From positions 1,566,485-1,630,484 of the forward strand of contig OY970309.1 in assembly GCA_963716395.1 (NCBI GenBank): a stretch of 64,000 nt of DNA, written 5' to 3'. The position numbers and the translations under genes are program-made. The DNA is from an uncultured Fibrobacteria bacterium. Its GTDB lineage: Bacteria > Fibrobacterota > Fibrobacteria > UBA11236. Under the pieces are notes generated by a model. That model did not search any database. It was not told the origin of the DNA and worked only from the letters and a program-made list of their open reading frames with translations. Positions 6,715 to 30,768 of the stretch are shown piece after piece (position 1 is the stretch's first letter; each line of letters starts with the position of its first letter).

Positions 6715-7574
6715 CCCTTGGCGGCGTCGGAGAGCCGCTGCAACACCCAGGCGTGCAGGGCTGGCGTGGCGGCGAGCAGGCCGTGGTGCACCCCCATCGA
6801 AGCGGCGCGAAAGTCGAGGGCCCGGCCCTCCAGGGCGGTCAGAACGCCGCCAGCCTCGGCCAGCACGACGTGGGGGGCGCAGACATCCCACAGCGACATG
6901 CGGTTCTCGGGCGGAGCCACGAAGGCGGTATAGGGGCCGCGCGCGATTTCGCAGATCTTGAGCGAGCCGTCCATGGCCGTGGCCGGGGGATGTCCCAGCC
7001 GCGCCAGCAAAGCTTCGACGGCCGCATTGCGCCGGCCGCGCGAGACCAAAATTCTTGGCTCCACGTCCGGAGAAACGCGCAGACGCGTCCACGCAGCGGC
7101 TTGAAACGGGTCGGCCGCCGTCAGCCAGGCGCCTTCGCCCTCCGCCGCCCAGAACAGCTCGCGCGTCTCGGGGCGATAGGCCATGCCCAGGCGTGGTGCG
7201 CCGTCGACGGTGAGCCCGAGCAGAATGCCGTAATGGTCGCCGCCGTGGACGAAGCTCGAGGTCGAGTCGAGCGGGTCGACCATCCAGCAGCGGCAGGCGT
7301 TGCGCCAAACCCCGGCCGTGCGGGATTCGTGGGTTTCTTCGTTCAAGACCCCGTCGGCGGGGAACAGTGCTTCGAGATGGCGATCGAGAAACAGCGCGCA
7401 GCGGTGATCGAGTTCGGTGACCAGGGAGTGGTCGGCCTTGCGGCGGACCTCGGTGAGGCCGGGACGCCCTGCGCGCAGCATCGTCCCCGCCTCCACCAAC
7501 AGCGGCAGCAGGGCTGCGGATTCGGCTTGGAAGCGGGAAGCCGCGAACGGGAGTCGCGGCGGCGTCCTGTTCAT
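6711..7574 (-). CDS. Inositol monophosphatase / CysQ-family phosphatase
   Basis: C-terminal 288 aa of the 534-aa ORF match the IMPase/CysQ family (ELDHRCALFLDRHLEALFP...WMVDPLDSTSSFVHG...). Start ATG at 7574 overlaps the upstream HAD stop as ATGA. The upstream 246 aa of the track ORF are read-through. Confidence 0.8.
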   Translation of the reverse strand: MNRTPPRLPFAASRFQAESAALLPLLVEAGTMLRAGRPGLTEVRRKADHSLVTELDHRCALFLDRHLEALFPADGVLNEETHESRTAGVWRNACRCWMVDPLDSTSSFVHGGDHYGILLGLTVDGAPRLGMAYRPETRELFWAAEGEGAWLTAADPFQAAAWTRLRVSPDVEPRILVSRGRRNAAVEALLARLGHPPATAMDGSLKICEIARGPYTAFVAPPENRMSLWDVCAPHVVLAEAGGVLTALEGRALDFRAASMGVHHGLLAATPALHAWVLQRLSDAAKG

Positions 7575-8437
7575 GTTACCGTGCCCGCAAAGTGTCGGTC
7601 GACCGCCTCGGCGACCCCGCATGCGGCCGCGGCCGCGACGGTTTCCTGGGCACATTCCCGCACCGCCGCGGGGGCATTGGCCACCGCAATGGATCGGCCC
7701 GCGCTCCGCAGCAGCGGCATATCGTTGGCCGAGTCGCCGACGGCCACGGCCTCCGCCAGATCCAATCCCAGCCACGCGGCCGCGCGGCGCGCGCCGGAAA
7801 GTTTGGAAACGCCTTGCGGCGTGATTTCCAGCATTGAGCCCGCGTAAAAGGTGTTGCGGATGAGCGCGGTTTCCAGCGGCAGCGGCGCCAACGCCATCTG
7901 GGCGCGCCGCAATTCCTCCTCGGGTCCGAGCAGGATGAGTTCGACCACTTCGAGGTCGCGCAACTCGCGGCTTTCGCGCCAGGTCCGGCAGCATCCCGCG
8001 TTCTTGGCCACGAAGTCGCCGTTTAAGAGGCTCAAGCGCCGATAATGCACGTCGACCCCGTCGGCGGGATTGTGGCTCAAGGCGATGGGGTCCCAGCCCA
8101 GGGCGTCCAGGACTTCCAGTGTCGCCATCTTTTGCTCGGCGGGAAAGCTTTCCGCATGCACGACGTCGCCGGTGTCCAAAGCGTGCATGCGCATGCCGTT
8201 GTTCACGATAGCCAGATCGGCGAGGGCCGCGAGCCCGAAACGGTCCACCAGGCGGCGCAAGGTACTCCAGCGTCTTCCCGTGGCCAGCACCACGGGAATG
8301 CCCTGCCGGCGGCAATGCTCCAGCGCCGCGCGGTTACGTGGGGGCAAGCCGCCCGCGTCGTCGAGCAAGGTTCCGTCGATATCGGTGATGAGCCAGCGAA
8401 AGGACACGGGCTTTATTAAGCATTTTTTTCGCGCCAT
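7571..8437 (-). CDS. HAD-IIB (Cof-type) phosphatase
   Basis: Motif [13 protein letters not shown]. Cof-like cap. C-terminal motif [13 protein letters not shown]. Start ambiguous: ATG 8437 or GTG 8407. Confidence 0.75.
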
Positions 8438-8798
8438 GGCCAAATGGGATTTGCCCGCCGGCGACGAGGAACTTTTGGCCCAATGCGAGGTCGAAACCTT
8501 TCACGCCTCCGGCAAGGGCGGACAGCACGTGAACAAAACCGAAAGCGCGGTGCGGCTGCGGCACCGGCCTACCGGCCTCGTGGCCAGTTGCCAGGAATCG
8601 CGCAGCCAATGGCAGAACCGCCGGCGTTGCCTGCAGAAGCTGCGGGCGCAGGCGGCGGCGCGCAGCTTCGTACCCAAACCGCGCGTGCCCACCTCCAAGA
8701 CCGGCGCGGCGCGGCGCAAAAGCCGCGCGGCCAAAATCCGGCACTCCCAAAAAAAAATCCGGCGCACGGCGCGCGATTGGCGCGATGAAGAAGCCTGA
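8436..8798 (+). CDS. arfB: Alternative ribosome-rescue factor ArfB (peptidyl-tRNA hydrolase, RF-like GGQ protein)
   Basis: 120 aa: [49 protein letters not shown]..., followed by a basic Arg/Lys-rich C-terminal tail, as in YaeJ/ArfB. Confidence 0.8.
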
Positions 8799-8831
8799 AA
8801 CGCGCGGCCGCATTCCCGGGATTGTGCGATA

Positions 8832-10193
8832 ATGGAGGCCATGAAACCCCGCGCGCTGGTGGTCGACGACGAAGCTTCGCTGTGCAGTCTGCTCGAGGTG
8901 TTTTTCGAGCGCCGTGGCTTCGAGGTCGATACGGCCCAAAACCGGCGCGAGGTGCAGAACCTGCTCGGCAAGCCCGAGCCCATGCTGGCCATGGTCGACC
9001 TGGCCCTGGGCAAGGATTCGGGGCTGGCCGTGCAGCAGGATCTCAACGCCCGCTTCACCGCTTTGCCGGTGGTGGTCATGACCGCATACGGCACGGTGGA
9101 AAAGGCGGTGGAGGCCATCAAACTCGGGGCGTTTGATTTCATCACCAAGCCCTTCGACATGGATTTTCTGGGCAAAGTGGTCGACAAAGCCCTGGCCACC
9201 CGCGCCTTGCAGGGCGAAAACCGGGAATTGCGGGCTTTAATCCACCGGCCTGCGGTGGAACTCATCGGATCGTCGCCGGTTCTGGCCACGCTGCGCACGC
9301 GCATCGAGGCCGCGGCCCCGTCCGACAGCACCGTGCTCATCACCGGCGAAAGCGGCACCGGCAAAGAGCTGGTGGCCAAGCTCATCCACCAGAAATCGCG
9401 CCGCGTGGGCAAACCCTTCGTGGTCGTGAATTGCTCGGCGTTGTCCGAAAACCTGCTCGAGTCGGAGCTGTTTGGGCATGTCAAGGGTGCTTTCACCTCG
9501 GCCCATGCCGACAAAGAAGGCCTGTTTTCGGTGGCGGACGGCGGCTCGGTTTTTCTCGACGAGATCGGCGACATGCCGCTCAAAACCCAGGTCAAGCTAT
9601 TGCGCGTGCTACAGGAGCGCGAGGTGACTCCCGTGGGCGGCACCGCCGCGCAGAAGATCGATGTGCGCGTGCTGGCCGCCACCAATGTGGATTTGGAACA
9701 GGCCGTGGCCCAGGGCCGTTTCCGCGAAGACCTGTACTACCGGCTCAATGTACTGCGTCTGCAAACGCCGCGGCTGGCCGACCGCCAGGATGACGCCGTG
9801 ATTCTCGCCACGCATTTTCTGAAGAAGAAAACCCGCGACCGCAAACGCTTTTCCCCCCAGGTGCTGGCCGAGATCAAAGCCTATTCCTGGCCGGGAAACG
9901 TGCGACAGTTGGAGAATGCCGTGGAACGCGCCATCGCCTTCGCACCCGACGAAGTCATCGAAACCCTGGATTTGGATGCACCGCGCGAAGCGCCCGAGAA
10001 GTCCGGGGAGGGCGAACCGGCCCTCGAGGCCGCGGCATTTCCGCCCTCGCTGGTCGAGGTCGAGAAAGCCTACATCCAATGGATTCTGATGCAGCACCAA
10101 TGGCAGAAACCCAAGGCCGCAAAGGTTCTGGGCTTGGATATTTCCACCCTTTATCGGAAAATCGAACGATACGGGTTGAAGCAAAACCCGTGA
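8832..10193 (+). CDS. Sigma-54-dependent response regulator (NtrC/Fis family): receiver + AAA+ + HTH
   Basis: Receiver domain (ALVVDDE...MVDLALGKDSG). Sigma-54 interaction domain ([11 protein letters not shown]; ESELFGHVKGAFT). C-terminal Fis-type HTH. Confidence 0.9.
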   Translation: MEAMKPRALVVDDEASLCSLLEVFFERRGFEVDTAQNRREVQNLLGKPEPMLAMVDLALGKDSGLAVQQDLNARFTALPVVVMTAYGTVEKAVEAIKLGAFDFITKPFDMDFLGKVVDKALATRALQGENRELRALIHRPAVELIGSSPVLATLRTRIEAAAPSDSTVLITGESGTGKELVAKLIHQKSRRVGKPFVVVNCSALSENLLESELFGHVKGAFTSAHADKEGLFSVADGGSVFLDEIGDMPLKTQVKLLRVLQEREVTPVGGTAAQKIDVRVLAATNVDLEQAVAQGRFREDLYYRLNVLRLQTPRLADRQDDAVILATHFLKKKTRDRKRFSPQVLAEIKAYSWPGNVRQLENAVERAIAFAPDEVIETLDLDAPREAPEKSGEGEPALEAAAFPPSLVEVEKAYIQWILMQHQWQKPKAAKVLGLDISTLYRKIERYGLKQNP

Positions 10194-10219
10194 ATTGTGA
10201 ATACCATTTGGGCTTTTCT

Positions 10220-12418
10220 ATGCCGCATTTCCGCCGCCGTCCGGGTCTTGTCTTCGACCGCACACGCCTTTTCCTCGGCGTGCTGTTGGCGGCGGCCCTT
10301 TGTGCCGGAACGGTTCGTGGCGCCACGTCCGATGCCTTGCTGCAGCAATGGCGCCAAGCCCTGGCGGCCCGGTTTCAGTTCGAAAGCGATCATCCCGCCG
10401 CGGCCGCGCTCTTTTCGGGCCGGCGCGATTTTTCCGGAACCGCGGCGTGGCTGGATTCGCTGCGCGGCCCGTTTTGGAATTCGGATTCCACCCTGCGCGG
10501 ATGGAATCTCGTCGCCCAGGCCCTGCTGCTGAACGCCCCACAACCCTCTGCGGCGGATCGCGCCCTCGCGGAACTTTCGCGCCGCTGGGCCGCCTATCCC
10601 GGTTGGTTGTACGAGGCGGCCAAAACCGCCGACCGCGCCGGCGCCGCGCGGCTGGCCGATTCGCTGCGCCTCAATCTGCGCCGGGCTCTCCTGGCGCAAG
10701 GGTACCGGCGTGTGCCGGAATTCGCAGCCGCCAGCCTGTGGACCGGCCTGGAACACATGCGTGTAGGCCGTTATGATCGCGCCCGCGCCGCTTTCGACTT
10801 GGCCGCGGCGTTCGACCCGATTTGCCCGTGGGTTCCCTGGGCCCAGCTCGAAAACTCCATACACGCCTCCGGCCCCTGGCACCTGAATCTGGGGGAGACC
10901 TGGGATTATCTGAGTCAGACCTTTCGGCTGCTGCGTTTTTTCGGCAATCAGTTATTGCTCGCCTACAACGTGCTGCACGCGCTGCGCCTGGGATTTCTGT
11001 ACTTCGGATTTGCCTGCCTGGTGGTTTTGTTCGCGCGCCATTTTTCGCGCCTCGCGCATCCTTGGGCCGAGCGCCTGCCCGGCAACGTCGATTTGCAGGT
11101 ACGCTATGCGGCCATCGCCATGGTGCTCTTGGGTGCAGCCGTGGCCGGCGCCGGCATGGGCATCGCCGCCATGGCGGTGTTCCCCTGGATTTGGCCCCAC
11201 GCCAACCCCGGCGAAAGGCGTCTGATGCGCTGGCTGCTGGCCGGACTGTTTTTACTGCCGGCGGCGCATTGGAGCGAACGCGTTTTGCTGCGGGCTTGGG
11301 ATCCGCAAGATGCCCTGCATGCCTTTCATCTGGCTTCGACGCGCGGCTTTGATCCCGCCGTGCTGCAATTAGCCCGCGAGCAGAAGCCCCGGGATTCTTC
11401 CGACGCGGCGTATCTGGCTTTGGCGCAATCGCTGCAATACAAGAAGCAGGGAAATTACCGGCGCGCCCTGGAAACCGTCGAGGCGGCGCCCGAAAGCACC
11501 ACCGTCCAACCTTTGCTGGAAATTCAAACAGCTGATTTGGCGTTTCTGGGATTCGATTATGCCCGGGCCGAGTCTTTGTTGACGCAAGCCAGTGGTAGGG
11601 CCGGAAACCGCGTCGACCTGTGGTTCAATGCCAGTCAGGCCGCCCTTTTCCAAAACAGTTCGAGCCGCAACAAAGAATATCTCGATCGGGCGGCGTCTGC
11701 CGATGCCACCTTGGTGACGAATTTCCTCAAAGAGAACGACGATTTGTTCGGCTCCAATGTGCCGGCCAACCGGCGGTTGATGGATCCCACGCTCCGCTCC
11801 AGTTCGGTCCTCTACGCGGCGATTTCCAACCGGGGTTGGACGCAACTTTTGACCGCGTCGGTTCCGAGCGGTTTGCTCGTTTTTCCCGGTGGCGTGTGGC
11901 TGGGCCTGTGTCTGGCTGCAAGCGTTCTGGTGTTCGTGCGTGCGCGCCAGAACTTCGTCACCCGGGGCAAGGCGGTCTTCCAATGCAAAATATGCGGAAG
12001 GATTATGTGCCGTACCTGCCGGAAAGGCGTACATTGCGCGCACTGTTTTAAAACCGTATCGGGCGTGGCCGAACCCAAGATGCGGCTGCAATTAATCGAA
12101 CGCCTGCGCCTGCGCAGCCAGTCCTTGACCCTGGTCTTGTTCCGCGCCCTGAATGTGATGGCGCCCGGCAGCGGTTGGCTGTTCCTGGGACGGGCCGATA
12201 CGCATCTTTTGCGCATGCTGTGTGTCTCGATGCTGCTGGCCTGGACGTATCAGGCCCATCACGCCATCCTGGAATATCCGCGCTTCGCGCCGGGCCTCCT
12301 GGTGTCGCTGCCGGGTGTTCTGGTGGTCGCCTATTACGCCGGCACGCTGTGGCGTACCTATCTGTGGCGTAAAGGCGAGTCGCCACCGGTGGCCGCCGAA
12401 ACGGGAGACGGGCTATGA
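10220..12418 (+). CDS. Polytopic membrane protein with helical TPR-like repeats and an embedded Cys-rich zinc-ribbon
   Basis: ATG 10220 gives a signal peptide (MPHFRRRPGLVFDRTRLFLGVLLAAALCAGTVRGA). Several hydrophobic helices. Motif CKICGRIMCRTCRKGVHCAHC (CxxC-x4-CxxC-x5-CxxC) lies between TM segments. No confident family assignment. Confidence 0.6.
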   Translation: MPHFRRRPGLVFDRTRLFLGVLLAAALCAGTVRGATSDALLQQWRQALAARFQFESDHPAAAALFSGRRDFSGTAAWLDSLRGPFWNSDSTLRGWNLVAQALLLNAPQPSAADRALAELSRRWAAYPGWLYEAAKTADRAGAARLADSLRLNLRRALLAQGYRRVPEFAAASLWTGLEHMRVGRYDRARAAFDLAAAFDPICPWVPWAQLENSIHASGPWHLNLGETWDYLSQTFRLLRFFGNQLLLAYNVLHALRLGFLYFGFACLVVLFARHFSRLAHPWAERLPGNVDLQVRYAAIAMVLLGAAVAGAGMGIAAMAVFPWIWPHANPGERRLMRWLLAGLFLLPAAHWSERVLLRAWDPQDALHAFHLASTRGFDPAVLQLAREQKPRDSSDAAYLALAQSLQYKKQGNYRRALETVEAAPESTTVQPLLEIQTADLAFLGFDYARAESLLTQASGRAGNRVDLWFNASQAALFQNSSSRNKEYLDRAASADATLVTNFLKENDDLFGSNVPANRRLMDPTLRSSSVLYAAISNRGWTQLLTASVPSGLLVFPGGVWLGLCLAASVLVFVRARQNFVTRGKAVFQCKICGRIMCRTCRKGVHCAHCFKTVSGVAEPKMRLQLIERLRLRSQSLTLVLFRALNVMAPGSGWLFLGRADTHLLRMLCVSMLLAWTYQAHHAILEYPRFAPGLLVSLPGVLVVAYYAGTLWRTYLWRKGESPPVAAETGDGL

Positions 12419-13497
12419 TCCTTCAAGGCGAACTGCGCGATTTTTCCCTGCCCGACGTGCTGCAACTTTTATGGCAGCAGAAAAAAAGCGGCGCCCTCAC
12501 CGTGACTCAAGCGGGTTCCGAAAAGCGCACGGCGGAAATATTCATCTCGCAGGGAAACATCGTGGGCGTCAGCGTGCAGGGGCGTACACCGGAAAACAAG
12601 ATTCAGGAAATCCTGACCGCTTCCGGCCGGGTGTCGCCGCAGGAAATGGCCGAGCTGGAAACCTTTGCGCGCGACATGGGTCGACCTTTGCTCAGCACGC
12701 TTACGGCCAAGGGGTTGATCCAAGATGCGCAGCGCGAAACGTGGTTTCAAATGGCCGCCGAAGACATGGTGTGCGATTTGTTTGCCTGGAATGACGGACA
12801 ATACGCCTTTTCCACCACCCAGCGCAGCCTGCCGCATGCGCTCGGGACCCTGCGCCTCTCCACCGAGTTCGCTTGCATGGAAGGTATGCGGCGCGTGGAC
12901 GAATGGCCGCATCTCCATGAAGCCCTGACGTCGGATCAAATTGTGTTCCAGGTCACGAGTACGCCGCCCACCGAAGCCTTGGGCGAATGGGAGGCGTTCA
13001 CCTTGGAAGTGGTGAATGGTCGGCGCTCTTTGGCGGAAATCGGGCGCCTGGTCCCTTTCGGCGCTTTCCGGCTTTACGAGTGCATCCTAAATTTGTGGAA
13101 ATCGGGTTGCATCGAACCGACCGGAAGCGTCTCGGCTCAGCCGGCCGAGGCGCTGCCGATCGTGCAACAATCCGATCGGGATCAAAAAACGGCGCTGGTG
13201 CTGGGTTTGGCCGCGGTCTTTCTCCTGTTTATGCTTTTACTGCGGGGTGTGGGGATGTGGGTCGAATTGCAGGGCAACATTCCTCTGCGCCGGGTGGAAA
13301 CGCGTGTGCGCGCCGACTTCGCGCGGCGTAATGCGGAGGTTTTCGTGCTGCAAGACGCCTCTGCAAGGGGGGCGTACCCTCCCGACCTCGACGCCTTGGT
13401 GCGTGCGGGAATGCTGTCGGTGCCCGAAGCCGACGGCCCGGCCGGAGCGCGTTTGCTTTACCACCGTAACGGTGCCCTGGATTTTGTACTGGAATAG
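12415..13497 (+). CDS. DUF4388 domain protein with C-terminal TM segment
   Basis: N-terminus GELRDFSLPDVLQLLWQQKKSGALTV matches the DUF4388 signature (G.L.dfsL.DlLQLL....ktG.L). Hydrophobic segment ALVLGLAAVFLLFMLLL. ATGA overlap with the upstream gene. Confidence 0.65.
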   Translation: MILQGELRDFSLPDVLQLLWQQKKSGALTVTQAGSEKRTAEIFISQGNIVGVSVQGRTPENKIQEILTASGRVSPQEMAELETFARDMGRPLLSTLTAKGLIQDAQRETWFQMAAEDMVCDLFAWNDGQYAFSTTQRSLPHALGTLRLSTEFACMEGMRRVDEWPHLHEALTSDQIVFQVTSTPPTEALGEWEAFTLEVVNGRRSLAEIGRLVPFGAFRLYECILNLWKSGCIEPTGSVSAQPAEALPIVQQSDRDQKTALVLGLAAVFLLFMLLLRGVGMWVELQGNIPLRRVETRVRADFARRNAEVFVLQDASARGAYPPDLDALVRAGMLSVPEADGPAGARLLYHRNGALDFVLE

Positions 13498-13499
13498 CC

Positions 13500-14312
13500 A
13501 TGCCGCTCCTGCTCAAACCCCATCGCGTGGCCTCGCCGGCAGAAATTCTTGAAGCCGATCCCCGTTGCCAGAAATTCGTGCAAAGCTCCACGACGCTGGC
13601 GTATTGCTGTTTACTGATCCGCCGGGGTGACTTGGATTTGGCGCGCCACGTTTGGAAGGTGTTGGCCGAGAACCAAGAGGCCGCTTTCCGCGACGAGTTG
13701 GTGTACTTGCAAGCCTGGATGGACATGAAAGCCCAGGATTTTGCCGCCGCCAAGGCCGCACTCCTGGGCCGCCTGGAAGCCCTGCCGGGCGATATGGCCG
13801 CACTTTCCCTCTTGCAGGCCTGTCTGGTGCTGGAACTGGATGAGAAAGCCCGCGGGTCCGCCAAATCCTACGCGTCTACCAAACCCGCTCCGGTCTTTAC
13901 GTCGCCCTCCGCTCAGGGCGCCATTTCGACACCACCCGGCGCGACGGAAGCGCCGCCCTCCGAAAACAACCCCTATCAAACGGTGCTCTCCGATCCGCAA
14001 ACCCGTGGTCTGGCGTTGTGGTCGGCCGGCGGCGAAGTCGAAAACTTAGGATCGGGCGAAGGGGAAGCGCTCGCCGCTGCGTTACCCGAATTGTTTCCAG
14101 CCTGGTTGGCCGAGGCGGTGGGAAACCTGGAAGGCGGAGAGGCGGTAAAAATCTGCTTCGCCTTTGAACACTGCACCGTCACCACATGGCATGGTGGCGG
14201 TCGGAACGCCGGACTGGTAACCGGGCCCTTGCGGCAATCGTTGCTCACCCTGGCCCGCGCCGAAAAAATTTTCCGCGCGTCCCCGCAGCCTCCGGTCCCG
14301 GAGGTCGCATGA
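13500..14312 (+). CDS. Hypothetical protein (helical N-domain, Pro/Ala-rich linker, small C-domain)
   Basis: 270-aa ORF in operon context. Stop overlaps the next start as ATGA. No recognisable motif. Confidence 0.5.
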   Translation: MPLLLKPHRVASPAEILEADPRCQKFVQSSTTLAYCCLLIRRGDLDLARHVWKVLAENQEAAFRDELVYLQAWMDMKAQDFAAAKAALLGRLEALPGDMAALSLLQACLVLELDEKARGSAKSYASTKPAPVFTSPSAQGAISTPPGATEAPPSENNPYQTVLSDPQTRGLALWSAGGEVENLGSGEGEALAAALPELFPAWLAEAVGNLEGGEAVKICFAFEHCTVTTWHGGGRNAGLVTGPLRQSLLTLARAEKIFRASPQPPVPEVA

Positions 14313-14734
14313 GCGCGGCCCGCACGGCGGCCGAAGTGAATCGCCTTTTGGAAGCGGCCGAGCCCTCCGCCTGTCTCGGATATCTCAGTTTGGTGAACGG
14401 CATCGACGGCGCGGTGTTATTCGACCATCAGGGTTGGGCCATGGCCACGGGCGAAGAAACCACCGAAAACCTGCTTCTCGAAGCGCCGTATTTTCTTTTT
14501 CATTTCCAGGAAGTGCTCCGGAATTTTCAGGAGTTGGGACTCGAGCCGCTGGAGTCCCAAGTCGCGTTTGGCGGCGCGAAATTTTATCTCGTCCTCAATT
14601 TGGAGCGGGAAAGCCGGTTTTTTTTAGTAGTTTCCGGCGCGCGGGGAAGTTACGATCTCTTCAAATACCGGGTGGACCGCGGAGCCCAGGCCATCGTGGG
14701 CCTGCTTCACGGTCGCGGCTATTTCCGGAGTTGA
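14309..14734 (+). CDS. Roadblock/LC7 domain protein (MglB-like), paralogue 1
   Basis: ATG 14309 with GGAGG 4 nt upstream. Pattern LVNGIDGAVLFDHQGWAMATGEE...FYLVLNLERESRFFLVVSGARGSYDLFKY is typical of the Roadblock/LC7 fold. Confidence 0.7.
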   Translation: MSAARTAAEVNRLLEAAEPSACLGYLSLVNGIDGAVLFDHQGWAMATGEETTENLLLEAPYFLFHFQEVLRNFQELGLEPLESQVAFGGAKFYLVLNLERESRFFLVVSGARGSYDLFKYRVDRGAQAIVGLLHGRGYFRS

Positions 14735-14738
14735 ACCC

Positions 14739-15071
14739 ATGCAAGCGGTCTTGGAGCGAATCAACCGGATCAAAGGCGTTAAGGGTTCCAGCATCGTGGG
14801 ATCCGACGGAATCGAAATCGTCTCGGCCTTCCGGGCCCCGGTCCCCTCCGAATTCATCAGCGCCTTGATCGTTTCGATTCAGCAAGCGGCGGCCAAAATC
14901 GTGGCGGCCGCAGAGACCGGCTCTTTGCTGCAAACCATGATTGAAGCGACCGAAGGAAAATTTTTTGTCCAAGTGGTAGGATTGGGATATCTTGTGGTCT
15001 TGGCCGACAGCCAAGCCAACGCGGGATTAATCCGAGTAGAAATAACCCAAGTCAGCCCCTTGATCAAATAA
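14739..15071 (+). CDS. mglB: Roadblock/LC7 domain protein (MglB-like), paralogue 2
   Basis: 110 aa: GVKGSSIVGSDGIEIVSAF...EGKFFVQVVGLGYLVVLADSQANAGLI is a canonical Roadblock pattern. Immediately upstream of the MglA gene, as in characterised mglBA operons. Confidence 0.8.
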   Translation: MQAVLERINRIKGVKGSSIVGSDGIEIVSAFRAPVPSEFISALIVSIQQAAAKIVAAAETGSLLQTMIEATEGKFFVQVVGLGYLVVLADSQANAGLIRVEITQVSPLIK

Positions 15072-15086
15072 GCAGAGGACGATCCT

Positions 15087-16655
15087 GTGGCATCCATCAA
15101 TTACGCAACCCGAGAAATCAGTTGCAAGATCGTGTATTACGGTCCGGGACTGAGCGGCAAAACCACCAATCTGCAAATCATCCACCGCAAAATTCCCGAC
15201 AAGGACAAAAGCGAAATGGTTTCGCTGGCCACTGAAACCGACCGCACCTTGTTTTTCGACTTCCTGCCGCTGGATCTGGGATCGATCAAGGGCTTTTCCA
15301 CCAAGTTCCAGCTTTATACCGTGCCGGGCCAGGTTTACTACAACGCCACCCGCAAGCTGGTGCTGCGCGGCGTCGACGGCGTGGTGTTCGTGGTCGACTC
15401 GCAGACCGACAAGATTCAGGAGAACGTGGAAAGCTTCACCAATCTGCAGGAGAACCTGCGCGAGTACGGGCATGCCATCGAGGCGATTCCACTGGTGCTG
15501 CAATACAACAAGCGCGACCTGCCCAACGTCTATCCGGTGCAGCAATTGAACGACCTGTTCAACAAATGGAACCTCCCCTATTGCGAAGCGGTGGCGGCCA
15601 CCGGGGTTGGCGTGTTCACCACTCTCAAGGCCATCGGCAAATTGGTGATCGACCGCTTCAACGCCAAGTACGCGGGTTTTCAAGGCGCCGGTCGCCGCAT
15701 GCAGCCGGGCCAACGCATGCAGCCTCCGCCGACTTCTCCCGCTCCTTCACCGTCTCGCGGCGATATGCGTCCCTTGCCCACTTCGCCTTTCGGCAGTCCC
15801 ACCGGAATGCCGGGAGGGCCGCGAACCCCGGCTCAGGGGCCCGCCGGTTTTGCTCCGCCGCCGCGCGAAAACCCCTTCGCATCGGCGCCGCCTTCTTTTT
15901 CGCCGGGGGCCCCGGGACCCGGGCACCCGCCGTTCATGATTCCGACACCTTTCCAAACACCTCCGGGAAACGCGCCTTCTCCTGCCGGGGGATTCGCTCC
16001 GCCGCCTCCGCCCGCCCCCAATTATCCGGGCGGCGGTTTTGCCGCCGGCCCGGCACCGTACCCGGGATCCAATGCACCGTTTCCGCCCCCGGGAAATATG
16101 CCCCCGCCGGGCGGATCGCCCGCCCCCGGAGGCATGCCTTCGCGGCCGGGCTTTCCCTCCGCTCCGGGCCCGAGTCCCGGACAGGGTAACATACCGGTTT
16201 CTCCTTTCCTGGATTCGTTCGCCGGTCCCCGGCCGGCCGCCCCGCTGGGCAATCCCGGACCGATTCCGGGATTGCAAACCAGCAACCCGTTCGCGGGGCA
16301 ACGTCCGCCGCCTCCGCCGTTTCCGGCATTCGGCGGCGCGCCACAACCGCAACAGCCGCCACCGCCCCCGTATCCGGGTGGCCCCTTTGCCCCGGGCAAC
16401 ATGCCGTCCATGGGCGGCCCCACCCCTTTCCCCGCACCCAACACACCTTTTCCTCCGACGCGGCCCAACGAACCCGAAGTCGCGCCGCCTCCGCCCCCGC
16501 CCGGGGGGCTGCGCAACAGCTTCGACGACGCCAGCGGTATCGTGTCGACTTATGAAGACGTGCAGCGCAACGAGAATTTCAAAACCAAAAAACTGCCGTT
16601 GCCGGGAGAAAAGAAAAAGGGTTTGTTCGACGGTTTTTTCCGCAAGGACAAATAG
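15087..16655 (+). CDS. mglA: MglA-family Ras-like GTPase fused to ~325-aa Pro/Gly/Ala-rich low-complexity tail with conserved-looking charged C-terminus
   Basis: Residues 1-195 align closely with Myxococcus MglA. P-loop GPGLSGKTT. Switch I TETDRTLFFDF (intrinsic Arg). Switch II TVPGQVYYNATRK. QYNKRDLPN. TGVGVFTTLKA. The reading frame then continues uninterrupted through a Pro-rich region to ...STYEDVQRNENFKTKKLPLPGEKKKGLFDGFFRKDK. Stop 16655, 3 nt before the next start. Confidence 0.85.
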   Translation: MASINYATREISCKIVYYGPGLSGKTTNLQIIHRKIPDKDKSEMVSLATETDRTLFFDFLPLDLGSIKGFSTKFQLYTVPGQVYYNATRKLVLRGVDGVVFVVDSQTDKIQENVESFTNLQENLREYGHAIEAIPLVLQYNKRDLPNVYPVQQLNDLFNKWNLPYCEAVAATGVGVFTTLKAIGKLVIDRFNAKYAGFQGAGRRMQPGQRMQPPPTSPAPSPSRGDMRPLPTSPFGSPTGMPGGPRTPAQGPAGFAPPPRENPFASAPPSFSPGAPGPGHPPFMIPTPFQTPPGNAPSPAGGFAPPPPPAPNYPGGGFAAGPAPYPGSNAPFPPPGNMPPPGGSPAPGGMPSRPGFPSAPGPSPGQGNIPVSPFLDSFAGPRPAAPLGNPGPIPGLQTSNPFAGQRPPPPPFPAFGGAPQPQQPPPPPYPGGPFAPGNMPSMGGPTPFPAPNTPFPPTRPNEPEVAPPPPPPGGLRNSFDDASGIVSTYEDVQRNENFKTKKLPLPGEKKKGLFDGFFRKDK

Positions 16656-16658
16656 CCC

Positions 16659-17144
16659 ATGGGTGATTTCGTCCTCTTCAAAGAGGATGTGGAGCGGATT
16701 CAGAAAATCCTTTCGCATCTGCTGACGGAATCCGCCGCCACCTACGTGCTTTTGATCAACAAAGACGGCAACCTCATCGCCAACGTGGGATTCAGTTCCT
16801 CCATCGACGCGAACAGCCTGGCCGCGCTGGCGGCGGGCAGCTTCGCCTCGACCCGCGCCATTGCGGCGTTGGTGGGGGAAACCGAATTCACCGTGCTGTT
16901 CCATCAAGGCGCGAAAGAGAACATCCACATCTCGCTGGTCGACGAAGACGGAATTCTGGTGCTGATTTTCGACGACCGCACCAATCTCGGCATGGTGAAA
17001 ATGGTGGCCGAGCAGGCACGCCGCAAATTGTCCGAAGTGCTGGACGACGTGCGGGCGAACGAAGTCGACGCGTTGCCTCCGGTGCCCGACGCGGAAAACG
17101 ATGTGGCGGATCGCATCGATTCCCTTTTTCCACCCGGCCCCTGA
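16659..17144 (+). CDS. Roadblock/LC7 domain protein (MglB/MglC-like), paralogue 3, with acidic C-terminal tail
   Basis: ATYVLLINKDGNLIANVGFSSSIDANSLAALAAGSFASTRAIAALVGE...EDGILVLIFDDRTN matches the Roadblock pattern. C-terminal ~40 aa are acidic. Confidence 0.75.
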   Translation: MGDFVLFKEDVERIQKILSHLLTESAATYVLLINKDGNLIANVGFSSSIDANSLAALAAGSFASTRAIAALVGETEFTVLFHQGAKENIHISLVDEDGILVLIFDDRTNLGMVKMVAEQARRKLSEVLDDVRANEVDALPPVPDAENDVADRIDSLFPPGP

Positions 17145-17198
17145 CCCGTTCCGGGGGCGGCGAGTCCGCCGCTTTTCCTTTTCTCCAAGTGCGGGCGC

Positions 17199-18239
<1,041 letters not shown>

Positions 18240-18335
18240 TTTTGCGCGCGGTTTGCCCGTCGGGCACGGCGGTTGGCGTTATATTGATCTTTGAACTATG
18301 GTCAACGCGCCGCGACGTTTCCGCGGGGGGCAAAT

Positions 18336-20441
18336 GTGAAGGCGCGCCGCATTCTCGGACTGGGAATTATCGCCGTCCTCTCCCTGGTCGTTTTATGTAT
18401 TCCGGGGTCCACGCGTTTTGCCCGCCCTTTTTTTTATCGCCTGTTCTTAGCCTTGCCGGCCCGGCATTCCGATCCTGTCACCCGCGTCGTCACTACGACG
18501 CCAGAGAATTTGCCGGCCGTCCTGCAGGAATTGACCACGGCGCAACCCAAATTGATCGCCTTGGATCCGGCGCTGTGGCAGGGTCGCGGCGACGAGGTGC
18601 AAAATCTATTGGCCCTCTTGCGCGGCATTCCGGTGGTGTTGGGATGGGCGGCCGATTCCGCAGGTCCGGGGATCGCCGTTTCCGAACCCGCCGCGCCGAT
18701 GCCGCGTCTTTCCACTTTGGAAGGCGCGCTGGCGATGAGCCTGCCGGTCATCCATCTGCGCGCCGGCGAGGCCCCACCCGCGCGTTTCGGTAACGTCTCG
18801 GCCGGTTGGGAGGTAGAGCCCAAGGGCCCGATTAATTCTTTGCAGGCTTTGGCGCGCCAGGGCGACGCCATCGTCCCATCGGCGGGCCTGGAAACTTTGC
18901 GCCGCAGTGCCGAGGTGTTTCCCGATCGCATCGCCTATGTGGACGGGATCGGCCTTTTCATCGGCAAGGATCTCACTTTGCCGTTGACCGCCCGGGGCAA
19001 GGTGCTCCTGCGCTTGCGATCCGCCGCGCCGATTCCGGCCGGGGTGCTGCCGCAGAATCTGGAGGCGATGGCCGGTAAAATCATCCTAGTCGGATCGCCG
19101 CAGCATGTGGTCGCCACCGCGGCCGGCCCGCGGTTGGCGGTCGAAACCTGGGCCTCGCTGGTCGACGACGCCCTGGCCCACGAAACCTTGGCGTTACCTG
19201 CGGGTGCGCCCTGGGTGGCCGCCGGCGTGGGCGCGGCCGGCATCCTGGCCGTGGAATTGGCTTTCTTCTTCGGCATGGAGGCGGGCGGTTTGGCCGCCTT
19301 GGCCGGCGGGCTGTCGCTGTTGTACCCCTTGCTGTCGCTGGGATTTTTCCTGGGTGCGAACTGGTGGCTGCCGCCCGACAAACCCTTCTTCACCCTGCTG
19401 GCCGCGGGCGCCGCCGCGGCGCTGTTCGCGGTGGGAAGAGGCCGTGCCGATGCCCCGGTCCGGCCTGAGCCGCCTCGGCCAATCCGGACGCCGTTGCCCA
19501 AGACGCCCCTGGCGGCATCGTCCGCGGGGTCCCCCTCTCGGCCGCATGTGCATGCCCCGCGCCTCGGCGAGAAACCGCCGTCGGCCGAGTCGGGGCTGGA
19601 GCGCGACGCACAGGGGCAATTGACTCGCCTCGGACGCTACCGCATCGTGCGGAAAATGAGCTCGGGATCGTCGGGAGATGTTTTCGAAGGCCTCGATACC
19701 CACATGGCGCGGCGGGTCGCCGTCAAGACCATGGCCCGCGGCGCGTCGCTGCATTTCGATCACGCGCTGGAACGCTTTCAGGTCGAGGCCAAGGCGGCGG
19801 GATCGCTCAACCACCCCAACATCAACACCGTCCACGATTTCGGCACCCTCGGCGATGTTTCTTACATGGTCCTCGAGTATCTCGACGGCGTCACGCTGTC
19901 GCAGTGGATGCGCAGCCATCCCATTCCGCCTCCGCCGGCTGTGCAGGAATGGGTTCGTCAAATCGCCGCTGCGCTCGACTACGCCCATGCCCACCACGTC
20001 ATCCACCGCGACCTTAAGCCCAGCAACCTCATGGTGGTCGACGAGGGAAAGACGGTCAAGCTCCTCGACTTCGGCGTGGCCAAAGTCGAAGACGTTATGC
20101 TGACCCAGACCGGCATGACCGTGGGCACCCCGTCGTACATGTCTCCCGAACAATTGCAGGGCGAAAAGGTGACCGCCGCCTCGGATCAGTACTCCCTGGC
20201 CGTGGTGCTCTATCAGCTTTACAGCCACCGGCTGCCCTACGGCGGCAGCCGCATTCCCGAGATTTGCGGGCACATTCTCAAAGGGGAATTCATTCCGCTG
20301 CACGAGGCCAATCCCGTCTTGGATCCGGCCTATTGGGAGGTGTTTCTGCGCGCGCTGCGGCGCGATCCCGCCGAGCGGTTTCCCGATTGCCGTGCCCTGG
20401 GCGATGAACTCGAAGGTGTACGCGCGCATTCCGCCCCGTAA
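18336..20441 (+). CDS. Membrane Ser/Thr protein kinase with N-terminal extracytoplasmic (CHASE2-like) sensor domain
   Basis: GTG 18336 start gives a TM anchor (ILGLGIIAVLSLVVLC). ~300-aa sensor region, then hydrophobic helices. C-terminal Hanks kinase (VAVKTM; HRDLKPSNLMV; DFGVAK; GTPSYMSPE). Confidence 0.8.
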   Translation: MKARRILGLGIIAVLSLVVLCIPGSTRFARPFFYRLFLALPARHSDPVTRVVTTTPENLPAVLQELTTAQPKLIALDPALWQGRGDEVQNLLALLRGIPVVLGWAADSAGPGIAVSEPAAPMPRLSTLEGALAMSLPVIHLRAGEAPPARFGNVSAGWEVEPKGPINSLQALARQGDAIVPSAGLETLRRSAEVFPDRIAYVDGIGLFIGKDLTLPLTARGKVLLRLRSAAPIPAGVLPQNLEAMAGKIILVGSPQHVVATAAGPRLAVETWASLVDDALAHETLALPAGAPWVAAGVGAAGILAVELAFFFGMEAGGLAALAGGLSLLYPLLSLGFFLGANWWLPPDKPFFTLLAAGAAAALFAVGRGRADAPVRPEPPRPIRTPLPKTPLAASSAGSPSRPHVHAPRLGEKPPSAESGLERDAQGQLTRLGRYRIVRKMSSGSSGDVFEGLDTHMARRVAVKTMARGASLHFDHALERFQVEAKAAGSLNHPNINTVHDFGTLGDVSYMVLEYLDGVTLSQWMRSHPIPPPPAVQEWVRQIAAALDYAHAHHVIHRDLKPSNLMVVDEGKTVKLLDFGVAKVEDVMLTQTGMTVGTPSYMSPEQLQGEKVTAASDQYSLAVVLYQLYSHRLPYGGSRIPEICGHILKGEFIPLHEANPVLDPAYWEVFLRALRRDPAERFPDCRALGDELEGVRAHSAP

Positions 20442-20495
20442 AAAGAGACGGACTTGAGGCGGGAATATTTCGCCGCATCGGTTAAATTCTTCGCC

Positions 20496-22322
20496 ATGAC
20501 CGCCGCCCAGTACCGATGCGCCGCCGGCTTTTTCCTCTGCGCCGCGGTGGGCTGGGCCTCGGCCGCCAGCCTGCAGCGGGCCGAAGCCGCCGTCAAAGCC
20601 CAGCAATGGAAGCGCGCCGAATCCGATTTAGAGCAGTTGCTCCGCCAAGCCCCGCATGCAGCGGTGGCCGAAGAAGCGACCGTACTGCTCATCGATGTGG
20701 CCCTGCAGCAGGAGAATACCGATTTCGCCGAGGCCACCGTACAGCGCTTCAAACGCCAATACGGGGCGTCGCCCCATTTGGCCCGCGTGCTGTATTACCA
20801 GGGAATTTTGGCCCTGCAAAAAGGCCGCAACGGCGATGCGGCCCAGGCCTTCGCCGCCGCCCTGATGCAGGCGCGCGTGCAGGGGGTTTACGACGCCGCC
20901 AGCCTGGCCTTGCGGCGCCTGGTCGATGCGCGGGGGCTGTTGCCCGACGAGTTGGAGGCCACCTGGAAAACCCTGCAGCGCGATCCGGTGCTGGGCCCGG
21001 GTCTGCTCGAGCGCTTGGGCGACGAACGCGAACGGGTCGGCCGCCACCGCGCAGCCGAGGCCGCCTACACCCAGTATCTTGAAAGTTACCCGGACGTCGC
21101 CGGTGCGGAGCGCGTGCGCGACAAACTGGCGCGCGCCCAGGCCGCTCCCGAAGAAAGCCCGGTGGTCCTCCTCATGGCGCCCTTCTCGGGTGAATTTTCC
21201 GAAGTGGGGCGTTCGTTGCGCGAAGGCGCGACCTTGGCCTTTGAGGACGCCCAGCGGCGGGGCGTTTCCTTGCCGGTGCTGGAGACGCTGGACGATCAGG
21301 GCAATCTCATCTACGGCGTACAAACCTTCCGCAAGACTCTGCGCGAAGAGCGCATCGGCGCCGTGATCGGGCCCGCCATGAGCGATGTGGCCACGGGCGT
21401 GGCCATCGAGCTCAGCGCGCGCAAAAGCTCCATTCCCCTGATCACGCCCACGGCCACCACTTACGGCATCGCCTCGTTGGGCGAAGGCGTGTTTCAACTC
21501 AACGTCACCACCCATACCCTGGGGCAGCGCATCGCCGCCTTTGCGTCGGATTGCCTAGGGCTCAAGGACTTCATCATCGTGGCGCCGCACAACGAATACG
21601 GCTTTCAACTTTCCGAGGTGTTCGCCAAAACCGTGGAGAAAAAAGGCGGCACGGTGGTGTCGGTGACCTATGTCGATCCCGACGCCACGGATTTGTCGGA
21701 TCCTCTGCAAGACGTGCGGCAAAAGCTGGCCAAAATATTTTTCGATCAGATGAAGTGGGAGGGCCAGCCGCTTCCCGACGCGCATGCGCTGCGATCGTGG
21801 ATGTCCGACTCGACCTTTCCGGTCGACGGCATTTTCATTCCCGCCACCAGCGCCGACGAAGCCAATAAGTTGGCGTCGCAGGTCATCTTCAACAAAATCA
21901 GCGGCCAGATGCTGGGTTCTTCGGGATGGTTCGACAAAACCCTGTTGCTCAAGAATTCCGAGGCCACCCATGGCGCTTATTTCAGCGTCGATTTTCCCGA
22001 TCAGCCCAAAACCCAGATTTACTCCGACTTTTCCCAGGCCTACCGCAACCGCTGGAAACGCTCGCCGGATCGGGTCGCCGCCCTGTCGTACGACGCCGCG
22101 CGCTTTTTGCTCGCCGGCATGTCCCAAGCCTCGCCTCCCGATCAATTGATTCGGGCGCTGCGGGCCATCCGCACCTTTCCGGGAGTGTTGGGCGACATCG
22201 AATTCGGCGAAGACGAGGGCGTGAACGAAAACACTGCGGTGTACCACTTCGAGCGCAAGGCGTTCAAAGAAGTGAACGATTGCCCGGACAGCGCCGCGGC
22301 GGTCAAGGCGCCGGTACGGTGA
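20496..22322 (+). CDS. Secreted TPR-repeat + type-1 periplasmic binding protein (LivK/amide-receptor-like) fusion
   Basis: ATG 20496 gives a signal peptide (MTAAQYRCAAGFFLCAAVGWASAAS). N-terminal TPR-like helices. C-terminal ~380 aa with the PBP1 pattern (VLLMAPFSGEFSEVGRSLREGATLAFED...IGAVIGPAMSDVATGV...). Confidence 0.7.
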   Translation: MTAAQYRCAAGFFLCAAVGWASAASLQRAEAAVKAQQWKRAESDLEQLLRQAPHAAVAEEATVLLIDVALQQENTDFAEATVQRFKRQYGASPHLARVLYYQGILALQKGRNGDAAQAFAAALMQARVQGVYDAASLALRRLVDARGLLPDELEATWKTLQRDPVLGPGLLERLGDERERVGRHRAAEAAYTQYLESYPDVAGAERVRDKLARAQAAPEESPVVLLMAPFSGEFSEVGRSLREGATLAFEDAQRRGVSLPVLETLDDQGNLIYGVQTFRKTLREERIGAVIGPAMSDVATGVAIELSARKSSIPLITPTATTYGIASLGEGVFQLNVTTHTLGQRIAAFASDCLGLKDFIIVAPHNEYGFQLSEVFAKTVEKKGGTVVSVTYVDPDATDLSDPLQDVRQKLAKIFFDQMKWEGQPLPDAHALRSWMSDSTFPVDGIFIPATSADEANKLASQVIFNKISGQMLGSSGWFDKTLLLKNSEATHGAYFSVDFPDQPKTQIYSDFSQAYRNRWKRSPDRVAALSYDAARFLLAGMSQASPPDQLIRALRAIRTFPGVLGDIEFGEDEGVNENTAVYHFERKAFKEVNDCPDSAAAVKAPVR

Positions 22323-22325
22323 CCG

Positions 22326-22550
22326 ATGGCCACGTGTTGGGATACGCTGTGCGGGCCCGACTGCGCCTGGTGCCGGTATAAACAGGCGCGTTACCGCCAG
22401 GGGTTCGCCACCCCCTGCTGGGAATGGTTTCACGCGCAACGCATCGAAAAGCGTTGTCGCCTCTGCCGCTTCTACCTTGAGCAGCGGAGTCTGCGCCCGG
22501 AATTGCCCGAAGATCCGTCTTGGCACCCGGCGGACGCCGCCTCCCGCTGA
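22326..22550 (+). CDS. Possible small Cys-rich protein (8 Cys / 74 aa)
   Basis: ATG 4 nt after the upstream stop. CGPDCAWC...C...CRLC spacing. No RBS seen. Could be chance in a GC-rich intergenic region. Confidence 0.25.
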   Translation: MATCWDTLCGPDCAWCRYKQARYRQGFATPCWEWFHAQRIEKRCRLCRFYLEQRSLRPELPEDPSWHPADAASR

Positions 22551-22559
22551 ACGCGCGGG

Positions 22560-23174
22560 TCAGGGCGTGTCGCGATACGGTGCGGTCGGCAATCCGCTTT
22601 GCTCCCGGCGCAAGAATTCCCGCGCCCGTAACAAAGCCGCTACCGTAATGGATTCGGTGAAGGTTCCCTCCAGCGCCTCACGGCAGGCTGCTTCCAGCGG
22701 CATCCAGCGGATTTCCAGCACTTCGGTGGGCTCGGGTTCGGACCGGCCCGGCGTCAGGTCGCGGGCCAAAAACAAATAGGCCACTTCATCGGTCACCGAA
22801 TTGGAAAGCGCCAAGCACCCGAGCGCATCCCAGCGCTTGGCCGTGAGTCCGGTTTCTTCGCGCAGCTCGCGGGCCGCGGCGTCCCGCACGGTGCCGCCTT
22901 CTTTGCGGCAGCCGCCTTCGGGAATTTCCCAGGAGTAGTAATCGAGCGGATAGCGGTGCTGCCCCACCAAGGGAATGTTGCCCTGCGGGTCGACGGCCAC
23001 CACACCCGTGGCCCAGTGGGCGAATTCGACCACCCCGTAGATGCCGGGTTGGCCGTCGGGGTGCAACACGCGATCCTCGCGCACCCGGATCCAAGGGTTG
23101 CGGTAAATGGGGCGGGTCGAAAGAACGGTCCAGGGCCCGACGCGCCGGAGCGCTTCGTCTTCGGAATCGTTCAC
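22560..23174 (-). CDS. NUDIX hydrolase (ADP-ribose pyrophosphatase-like)
   Basis: Nudix box GGCRKEGGTVRDAAARELREETGL. GTGA overlap with the upstream lipoprotein gene stop. Confidence 0.85.
   Translation of the reverse strand: MNDSEDEALRRVGPWTVLSTRPIYRNPWIRVREDRVLHPDGQPGIYGVVEFAHWATGVVAVDPQGNIPLVGQHRYPLDYYSWEIPEGGCRKEGGTVRDAAARELREETGLTAKRWDALGCLALSNSVTDEVAYLFLARDLTPGRSEPEPTEVLEIRWMPLEAACREALEGTFTESITVAALLRAREFLRREQSGLPTAPYRDTP

Positions 23175-25528: not shown

Positions 25529-27070
<1,542 letters not shown>

Positions 27071-30651: not shown

Positions 30652-30768
<117 letters not shown>

Follow-up and report, generated by a model that had tools for sequence, protein, structure and literature searches.

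What kind of unit is a run of twelve genes in which signalling proteins stand on both sides of a bacterial polarity GTPase? The question is raised by positions 8436-22322 of a 64,000-nucleotide stretch (the window) of contig OY970309.1 from an uncultured Fibrobacteria bacterium (assembly GCA_963716395.1), where the genes g01 to g12 (Table 1) include a module built around the MglA-type GTPase g08. A sequence-only reading had taken them for one 14-kb supercluster in which a two-component regulator, a Hanks-type kinase and a periplasmic binding protein (PBP) are wired to the GTPase. The twelve co-directional + strand genes are indeed there, nearly all of the domain calls made at that time are upheld by Pfam and NCBIfam, and the successive gaps from g01 to g12 measure 33, 26, -4, 2, -4, 4, 15, 3, 54, 51 and 12 nt, i.e. 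-4 to 54 nt; the limit of 95 nt given earlier is explained by the start of g11 in the public annotation (a GTG; P0001), with which the g10-g11 gap becomes 96 nt. Co-directionality alone is unremarkable, since about 25 mostly - strand genes occupy 30.8-64 kb of the same window. Comparison with relatives leads us to think that the 14 kb is probably a composite of three layers of different evolutionary ages around one ancient module, and that the likely role of this module is that of a membrane-tethered polarity switch for type IV pili (T4P) with lineage-specific signalling add-ons.

The twelve proteins and their flanks were compared across 97 related loci, of which 80 are from genomes and 14 from metagenomes and three are contigs reached via g06 homologues (L numbers below). 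The claim of a 14-kb unit is not borne out by this set, in which the genes after MglB and before the NtrC-type regulator vary among relatives; the linkage of signalling genes to MglA is conserved, but to different depths, which fall into three tiers. The first tier is the core g04-g09, i.e. PATAN (DUF4388), g05, g06, Roadblock, long MglA and MglB, and this arrangement, in which the two proteins between PATAN and Roadblock are variable, recurs in Fibrobacterota, Ignavibacteria, Zixibacteria, Planctomycetota and BRC1. MglB is present in 75 of the 80 genome loci and PATAN stands beside MglA in 38, while the position of g07 (-0.4 kb) is conserved in 27 loci. Within g03-g09 the spacing is operon-like, with overlaps and small gaps of -4 to 15 nt. 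The nearest relatives of g08 belong to Fibrobacterota metagenome-assembled genomes, with a G-domain identity of 91%.

The second tier is confined to the upstream side. All Fibrobacterota-type loci reaching that far have the membrane protein g03 upstream of PATAN, a position also kept in the Chitinispirillales locus L003. An NtrC orthologue 66-67% identical to g02 precedes g03 in L001, L082, L085 and L088 and also heads the block in an 11-kb ENA contig, so the NtrC-type regulator singled out by the earlier account proves to be the conserved first gene of the block in five Fibrobacteria contigs besides the window. The junction of NtrC and g03 is an overlap in L001 and a gap of 5-59 nt in the other relatives. 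Upstream of NtrC the relatives have an M50 peptidase gene and rpsT where the window has g01, and in L003 and L005 g03 directly follows rpsT without NtrC. The gene g01 had been called arfB, and its GGQ/RF-1 domain and basic C-terminal tail are ArfB-like, but it scores 51 bits against the ArfB equivalog cut-off of 100; it was not found beside the module in any related locus and is a lineage-specific, unrelated neighbour outside the conserved block. As a side observation, L005 (CAZRWX010000003.1) is labelled 'uncultured Bifidobacteriales bacterium', and as it has the Fibrobacterota-type string of rpsT, a g03-like Cys6 protein, PATAN and onwards to a long MglA, this label is probably wrong.

The third tier is the narrowest, since g10 and g11 follow MglB only in the window, L081 and L095 (GCA_041483475.1). 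Relative to the window, the sigma-54 enhancer-binding protein (EBP) and the kinase are 65% and 44% identical in L081 and 68% and 55% identical in L095 (kinase full length), and both contigs stop inside g11. The order MglB, receiver-less EBP, membrane kinase is hence not unique to this genome, which the sequence-only reading had left as a possibility. The genes g10-g12 do not adjoin the module in L001, L082, L085, L088, L003, L005 or any other phylum, and in distant Fibrobacteria MglB is followed by TldD/PmbA (L082) or a convergent BNR gene (L001). Nor was g12 found adjoining the module elsewhere, the L081 and L095 contigs ending before its position.

Table 1. Features of the gene cluster, its flanks and the pilus and flagellar genes of the window (positions in nucleotides of the window; E values are from Pfam matches)
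Feature	Position	Strand	Assignment and remarks
HAD hydrolase	7571-8443	-	5' flank of cluster
g01, RF-1/GGQ protein, 120 aa	8436-8798	+	RF-1 E 1.7e-24; GGQ at residue 28
g02, NtrC-type response regulator	8832-10193	+	Response_reg, Sigma54_activat (E 4e-71), HTH_8
g03, polytopic membrane protein, 732 aa	10220-12418	+	no Pfam or NCBIfam family
g04, PATAN/DUF4388	12415-13497	+	E 2e-27; one C-terminal transmembrane segment, residues 261-279
g05	13500-14312	+	no Pfam match
g06, cryptic Roadblock-fold protein (predicted)	14309-14734	+	no Pfam match; AlphaFold2 pLDDT 90.4, pTM 0.85
g07, Roadblock/LC7	14739-15071	+	Robl_LC7 E 3e-8; directly upstream of MglA
g08, long MglA, 522 aa	15087-16655	+	G domain 15087-15671; Pro-rich linker 15672-16604
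g08, basic amphipathic end GEKKKGLFDGFFRKDK	16605-16652	+	C-terminal motif
g09, MglB-type Roadblock	16659-17144	+	Robl_LC7 E 2e-12; downstream of MglA
Terminator-like GC hairpin and T-rich run	17153-17186	+	g09-g10 gap, 9 nt past g09 stop
g10, sigma-54 activator without regulatory domain	17199-18239	+	Sigma54_activat E 3e-64; HTH_8
g11, membrane Hanks-type Ser/Thr kinase	18291-20441	+	Pkinase E 1e-43
g12, exported TPR and type-I PBP fusion	20454-22322	+	Peripla_BP_6 E 2e-33; TPR/YfiO matches
NUDIX	22560-23174	-	3' flank of cluster
FliK-like gene	41254-43260	-	
Flagellin-family/FlgL gene	45036-46226	-	
FlgK	46223-47905	-	
FlgJ-like gene (Rod-binding and SLT)	probable ATG near 49386	-	
PilQ secretin	51166-52761	-	
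Open reading frame without family	52758-54590	-	PilP position
Two PilO/PilN-sized open reading frames	54604-55829	-	assigned by size
PilM	55831-56913	-	
PilZ-domain protein	57019-58119	-	
PilT-like T2SSE ATPase	62273-63373	-	

At the centre of the first layer stands g08, whose G domain matches the solved M. xanthus MglA structures over residues 1-191 (PDB phmmer E 2.7e-75), the top Pfam match being Gtr1_RagA. The motifs GPGLSGKT at residue 19, TVPGQ at 78 and NKRD at 141 provide the P-loop, the Thr-for-Asp G3 (TxxGQ) with catalytic Gln and the NKxD of a group 1 MglA, and TETDRT at 49-54 aligns with the switch I region that holds the MglA Arg finger, its Arg presumably being the equivalent of MglA R53. 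In length, however, g08 departs from the single-domain family of approximately 195 aa by a tail of 327 aa, 31% of which is Pro. A survey in which 90 of 94 loci gave an MglA with full-length start reveals that this goes with gene order: where MglB lies upstream, as in the canonical arrangement, all MglAs are 192-211 aa, whereas 39 of the 41 with MglB downstream are 311-705 aa (the exceptions, L089 and L090, are 202 aa). Earlier work (PMC4316618) recorded group 1 MglA in Fibrobacteres and noted that a subset of group 1 comes with two coupled MglB genes and that PATAN is now and then a neighbour, but no extension is recorded there; likewise, no published description of a long MglA tail was found in a literature search. 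The long MglA is a widespread, previously undescribed version of the bacterial polarity switch, and its branch, which extends over Fibrobacterota, Ignavibacteria, Zixibacteria, Planctomycetota and further groups, counts at least 150 clusters at 50% identity.

In these proteins the low-complexity linker is not conserved, but in-frame conservation from phylum to phylum is seen at the extreme C-terminus. It reads KKRGFFKRLFG[IL]K in Ignavibacteria and Zixibacteria (for example KKRGFFKRLFGIK), KKKG[FL]FDG[LF]F[KR]K[DE]K in Fibrobacteria and QKGFIKKLFNKD in Chitinispirillales, while Planctomycetota have a hydrophobic transmembrane (TM) tail-anchor in place of the amphipathic motif. The membrane-targeting sequence (MTS) of E. 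coli MinD, which has been used experimentally, is KGFLKRLFGG (PMC5471200), a close match. In an exhaustive HMMER search over 1.84 billion representatives the best 150 matches, all of 255-717 aa, were sorted into tail classes according to motif and charge, with windows inside the linker as controls; a strict basic amphipathic end was found in 41 of the 150 as compared to two of 725 internal linker windows, and a C-terminal TM segment in 13 of the 150 as compared to four of 725. A hydrophobic-moment threshold had also been tried for this purpose and was dropped, as the MinD MTS itself scores only 0.45. The tail end of g08 is probably a membrane anchor, and the TM tail of Planctomycetota would be a different route to the same result.

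That the C-terminal region is instead a non-functional low-complexity extension or a protein-binding scaffold, with no tether, appears distinctly improbable. It would agree with the highly variable length and sequence of the linker, as well as with the minority of long MglAs that have other endings, but it is difficult to reconcile with an end that stays in frame across phyla where the linker does not, with the exchange of amphipathic motif for TM tail in Planctomycetota, with the enrichment over control windows and with the resemblance to the MinD MTS. Of these other endings, the acidic Phi-x-P-[FY] type occurs in ten of the best 150 matches, examples being DSPFIDLQPFRGV, DLDFNPYG, DPEFNPFQDS and IELRPY[IV]PK, and a third class of long MglAs ends in alternating hydrophobic and polar stretches such as RRFKLSLRLRLESVD. 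The acidic-aromatic and alternating endings may be partner-binding peptides or small domains; long MglAs with other endings include P0164, P0176, P0177, P0180, P0181, P0184, P0189, P0192, P0204 and P0208 and the protein encoded at 10001-11209 of L005.

With the tail read as an anchor, layer 1 (g04-g09, joined by g03 in Fibrobacterota) would have at its heart a group-1-type G domain carried on a Pro-rich flexible linker of about 310 residues that ends in a MinD-type basic amphipathic helix, and we infer that this helix tethers g08 to the inner face of the cytoplasmic membrane. For the long MglA branch as a whole, we see even chances that it consists of membrane-tethered GTPases (by linker and MinD-like or TM anchor) which, with a Roadblock platform and a PATAN adaptor, place T4P, and so forms a prokaryotic counterpart of the hypervariable region (HVR) and anchor of Ras-like proteins and of Rag-Ragulator. 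As in Ras and Rab with their HVR and lipid anchor, a flexible linker at the C-terminus with an anchor at its end would keep the GTPase at the membrane, although the anchor is here an amphipathic helix or TM tail and not a lipid, and as in Rag-Ragulator several Roadblock-fold proteins may serve as platform. The resemblance to both would be a functional one, with no sign that the tails share an ancestry. To our knowledge, the extensions of SofG are not terminal membrane anchors and SofG is without a coupled MglB. SofG is an extended MglA paralogue which positions the PilB and PilT ATPases (PMC4316618).

The importance of the tether lies in the fact that MglA and MglB are the model for bacterial front-rear polarity, while mechanistic work uses the soluble 195-residue form of Myxococcus and Thermus. 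If the long form is tethered, a number of little-studied phyla would control polarity through a GTPase cycle that is bound to a surface and has a Roadblock platform of its own, and bacteria too would have evolved the design in which a flexible leash joins a GTPase to a membrane anchor. In work on Asgard GTPases, the membrane-inserting C-terminal extension is seen as arising during eukaryogenesis (PMC10933270).

The module is also rich in Roadblock-fold proteins, of which three are certain and a fourth is possible. The MglB-type g09, which scores 82 bits against the NCBIfam MglB model and thus below its equivalog cut-off of 200, is the presumed GTPase-activating protein (GAP) of g08, and g07 is a recognisable Roadblock/LC7 protein. 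In the case of g06 the fold comes from the predicted structure, for which the best Foldseek match in the PDB is M. xanthus MglB (6hjm; E 1.6e-6, TM-score 0.67-0.79), followed by Ragulator (LAMTOR) subunits and Asgard roadblocks; furthermore, g06 matches the C-terminal Roadblock domain of a 327-aa Ignavibacteria/Zixibacteria protein by hhalign at 93.6%. One g06 homologue has a weak match to MAPKK1_Int, which we take to be the MP1/LAMTOR3 family. The fourth candidate, g05, begins by alignment with helical repeats, which a variable linker connects to a C-terminal domain that is conserved and measures about 100 aa. This domain is possibly Roadblock-like, since its predicted order of beta-beta-alpha-alpha-beta-beta-beta-alpha is, at low confidence, compatible with the fold; the AlphaFold2 model, with a pLDDT of 70-88 for residues ~30-110 and 35-55 for the C-terminal part, is too poor for a fold search, and the g05 family has no significant hhalign match to the Roadblock and TPR-Roadblock families.

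We propose that g06 and g07 serve together, perhaps with the C-terminal domain of g05, as an accessory Roadblock platform, which would be analogous to MglB-MglC-RomY of Myxococcus and, functionally, to Ragulator. MglC and the co-GAP RomY of M. xanthus illustrate that several Roadblock-domain proteins can tune one MglA (PMC9481161); the extra Roadblock genes of the module are by comparison operon members and, as far as tested, not MglC orthologues, and no RomR or RomX gene lies within the cluster. With M. xanthus and T. thermophilus MglA/MglB (PMC4316618) the module has in common the G domain, the P-loop, TVPGQ, NKRD, the Arg-finger region and an adjacent MglB-type gene. It differs from them in the order, which is Roadblock, MglA, MglB and not mglB-mglA, in the low-complexity tail of 120-500 aa with its putative amphipathic or TM anchor, in having three or perhaps four Roadblock-fold proteins, and in the TM-anchored PATAN protein and, in Fibrobacterota, the Cys6 membrane protein as fixed members.

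A connection with T4P is suggested by the PATAN protein and by its neighbours in other phyla. In Synechocystis, a membrane-localised PATAN domain has PilB1 and PilC as binding partners (bioRxiv 10.1101/2021.06.11.447907), and the TM-anchored g04, which shares the DUF4388/PATAN domain with cyanobacterial PatA-type regulators but lacks their receiver domain and carries a TM segment of its own, may couple the switch to the T4P extension motor. A PilB-like ATPase (T2SSE and MshEN) is found in 21 loci and stands directly after MglB in 14 of these, namely 13 of the Ignavibacteria/Zixibacteria type and L089. In Ignavibacteria and Zixibacteria this gene closes a fixed string of MurJ, ComEC, PATAN, a 120-aa membrane protein, TPR+Roadblock, TM+Roadblock, Roadblock, long MglA, MglB and the PilB-type ATPase. 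The string from MurJ and ComEC to PilB was seen in L006, L007, L014 and about 15 similar loci, at roughly 2000-13400, and ComEC beside a T4P-linked module hints at competence-pilus control. The window itself contains a T4P gene set and flagellar genes (Table 1), so the organism has both flagella and T4P. The remaining module protein, g03, has five to eight hydrophobic segments and a zinc-ribbon-like Cys6 motif, CxxC-x4-CxxC-x5-CxxC (nt 11984-12046), invariant in seven homologues including the one in L003, and might be a lineage-specific membrane partner of the switch.

In layer 2, g02 would have become the promoter-proximal gene of the operon in one Fibrobacteria lineage. The cluster contains no histidine kinase partner for g02. 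The regulator probably connects a histidine kinase encoded at a distance with a sigma-54 regulon in another part of the genome. A sigma-54 promoter common to the cluster is not apparent: the consensus TGGCAC-N5-TTGC, which according to the sequence-only reading should be sought upstream of 10220, 12415 and 17199, was not found there, a weighted -24/-12 scan was also negative, both for the intergenic positions of 8000-22400 and for the region ahead of NtrC in four relatives, and the motif count over the window (69) is lower than the shuffled mean (85). The scan can detect such promoters in this genome, as it found the near-consensus site TGGCATAGGGTTTGC at 49424-49438 on the - strand, about 35 nt before the likely start of the FlgJ-like gene. 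A sigma-70 scan likewise gave no sites, but may be uninformative, the promoter type of this phylum possibly not being covered. The flagellar genes at 41254-49515 (-) are plausible targets of the sigma-54 activators of the window.

Layer 3, comprising g10-g11 and possibly g12, appears to be a young, clade-restricted signalling unit. Its 5' edge is marked by spacing, as the two widest gaps of the cluster (54 and 51 nt) border g10 on either side, and by the hairpin at 17153-17176, a 10-pair stem followed by TTTTCCTTTTCT, which is the top-ranked terminator-like site of the scanned 7000-25000. The evidence for a terminator is nonetheless weak, since the hairpin is not conserved in L081 or L095 and the fold of the whole gap is unremarkable (z-score -0.37). 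A mobile-element or horizontal origin of g10-g12 was considered and found unsupported, the GC content at third codon positions being 0.74-0.78, which is typical of the window.

The activator g10 starts directly at the AAA+ domain with GAFTGA intact at residue 117, and the pairing of an EBP that lacks a regulatory domain with a neighbouring kinase points to control by phosphorylation or expression level. The kinase g11 has the sequence marks of a Hanks-type kinase, namely the catalytic Lys in VAVK at 476, HRDLKPSN at 572, DFGV at 593 and the activation or P+1 loop in GTPSYMSPE at 612. Its sensor half scores 26.3 for CHASE2, exactly the gathering score, over profile positions 58-226 of 257, and the TM segments at 21-39, 309-327 and 336-354, with a region of about 270 aa between the first and the second, form a topology that fits CHASE2; the orthologue in L095 gave no CHASE2 match at E 1e-4. 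This half found only itself among 5.8 billion proteins, and a metagenome scan with the kinase gave no relatives. Homologues of g11 fused to Peripla_BP_6 exist (P0115, P0116), and for this reason g11 and g12 may be a sensing pair. The PBP and the CHASE2-like kinase would then respond to an extracytoplasmic signal, with g10 under the control of the kinase; direct phosphorylation of module proteins by g11 is a less likely variant.

The architecture earlier described for g12, a TPR and LivK-like ligand-binding fusion, stands, whereas the signalling input ascribed to it is putative. The protein has an N-terminal hydrophobic segment at 22-40 and no clear lipobox, and it was rejected as a plain ABC-transporter binding protein, since permease and ATPase genes are not adjacent and it has an N-terminal TPR. 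It also matches LppC with 29.5 bits, just over the cut-off of 28.8, in an LpoA-like architecture, and its TPR resembles those of BamD, YbgF and CpoB. On these grounds g12 could be an LpoA-like periplasmic or outer-membrane lipoprotein in an envelope-related unit g10-g12 unrelated to MglA, in which kinase and activator control cell-wall or envelope genes and the position after MglB is accidental. The clade restriction of g10-g11, the wide gaps and hairpin at the 5' edge and the lack of ABC transporter genes nearby would be in line with this, but we consider it unlikely, as phmmer of g12 against the PDB returned Leu/Ile/Val-binding (LivK-type) proteins only and no LpoA, as the adjacency to MglB is retained in three diverged lineages, and as kinases recur beside MglA modules in other phyla.

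Such recurrence is seen in two Planctomycetota loci, L022 (990-5041) and L054 (1-3955), where a Pkinase+TPR gene lies directly upstream of, and co-directional with, the gene for a 1050-aa PATAN, TPR and beta-propeller protein of the module. A sigma-54 activator gene, which in L022 includes a GAF domain and in L054 is truncated where the contig stops, runs divergently from the kinase gene; this is an independent recurrence of the kinase-plus-EBP neighbourhood. In M. xanthus, masABK adjoins mglBA and a masK mutation suppresses mglA8 (PMC3546991). There, as in the window, a membrane-associated kinase gene adjoins the mgl genes, but masABK is divergent from mglBA, whereas g11 is co-directional and downstream and comes with a CHASE2-like sensor, a sigma-54 activator and a TPR-PBP fusion, and the homology shown between g11 and MasK does not go past the kinase domain. 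The actinobacterial conservon CvnA-D (PMC4316618) similarly has a sensor kinase gene hard-wired to a Roadblock protein and an MglA-family GTPase, but there the MglA is of group 2, the kinase is a histidine kinase and the cassette is a fixed one of four genes, as opposed to a group-1-like GTPase with a Hanks kinase in one clade only. Communication between g10-g12 and MglA is possible in view of the MasK precedent and of the kinase and sigma-54 activator neighbours in L022 and L054.

These parallels, together with the twelve co-directional genes at gaps of at most 54 nt, the conservation of NtrC at the head of the block and the persistence of MglB, EBP and kinase in this order in L081 and L095 in spite of identities of 44-68%, speak for the original proposal of a single motility or polarity programme that is gated by the environment and takes in all twelve genes, which would probably be co-transcribed or under common sigma-54 control, with the two-component regulator, the Hanks kinase and the PBP feeding directly into MglA and its Roadblock partners. 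We nevertheless hold this to be rather improbable, because g10-g12 are not beside the module in other relatives and phyla, g01 and g12 were never found syntenic, the proposed sites have no -24/-12 element although one is readily visible before the FlgJ-like gene, a terminator-like hairpin follows g09, and the kinase substrates are hypothetical. On the three-layer reading, there would instead be an old module to which sigma-54 regulators and a Hanks kinase were joined step by step, and no single ancient super-operon.

It should be mentioned that several observations weigh against this three-layer reading and against the proposed function of the module. The retention of g09-g10-g11 in three lineages could equally mean coupling to the module, and the g09/g10 boundary is drawn from gap size, one unconserved hairpin and synteny. 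No pilB adjoins the module in Fibrobacterota, where the T4P genes are 30-40 kb away. As to the anchor, the Fibrobacteria motif has an acidic residue and a moment of 0.45, on the same scale equal to that of the MinD MTS and not extreme, and some long MglAs end in the acidic or alternating, beta-like sequences described above. The C-terminal fold of g05 is, as said, of low confidence. Lastly, the GAFTGA loop of g02 reads GAFTSA, and G[AS]FTSA is found in g02 and its orthologues of L001, L082, L085 and L088, which makes it not certain that these proteins depend on sigma-54.

A few minor points concern the surroundings of the cluster. The longest open reading frame (ORF) of the HAD gene, starting on the - strand with a TTG at 8443, overlaps the start of g01 at 8436 by 8 nt (8436-8443), and the true start is probably further in, for example at a GTG about 36 nt downstream and ahead of the ITDIDGTLL motif, which would leave a very short divergent intergenic region between HAD and g01. 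A 534-aa ORF at 6711-8315 (-) is probably not a single gene, since its C-terminal part (~6711-7530) is by eye of the inositol-monophosphatase type while the remainder overlaps the well-supported HAD gene in another frame; it is a typical spurious long ORF of a GC-rich genome. The window further contains one tRNA at 3031-3103 (-) and a complete rRNA operon on the + strand at 25528-30769 (16S 25528-27064, 23S 27457-30428, 5S 30654-30769), which accounts for the low-GC, high-skew stretch at 26-30 kb.

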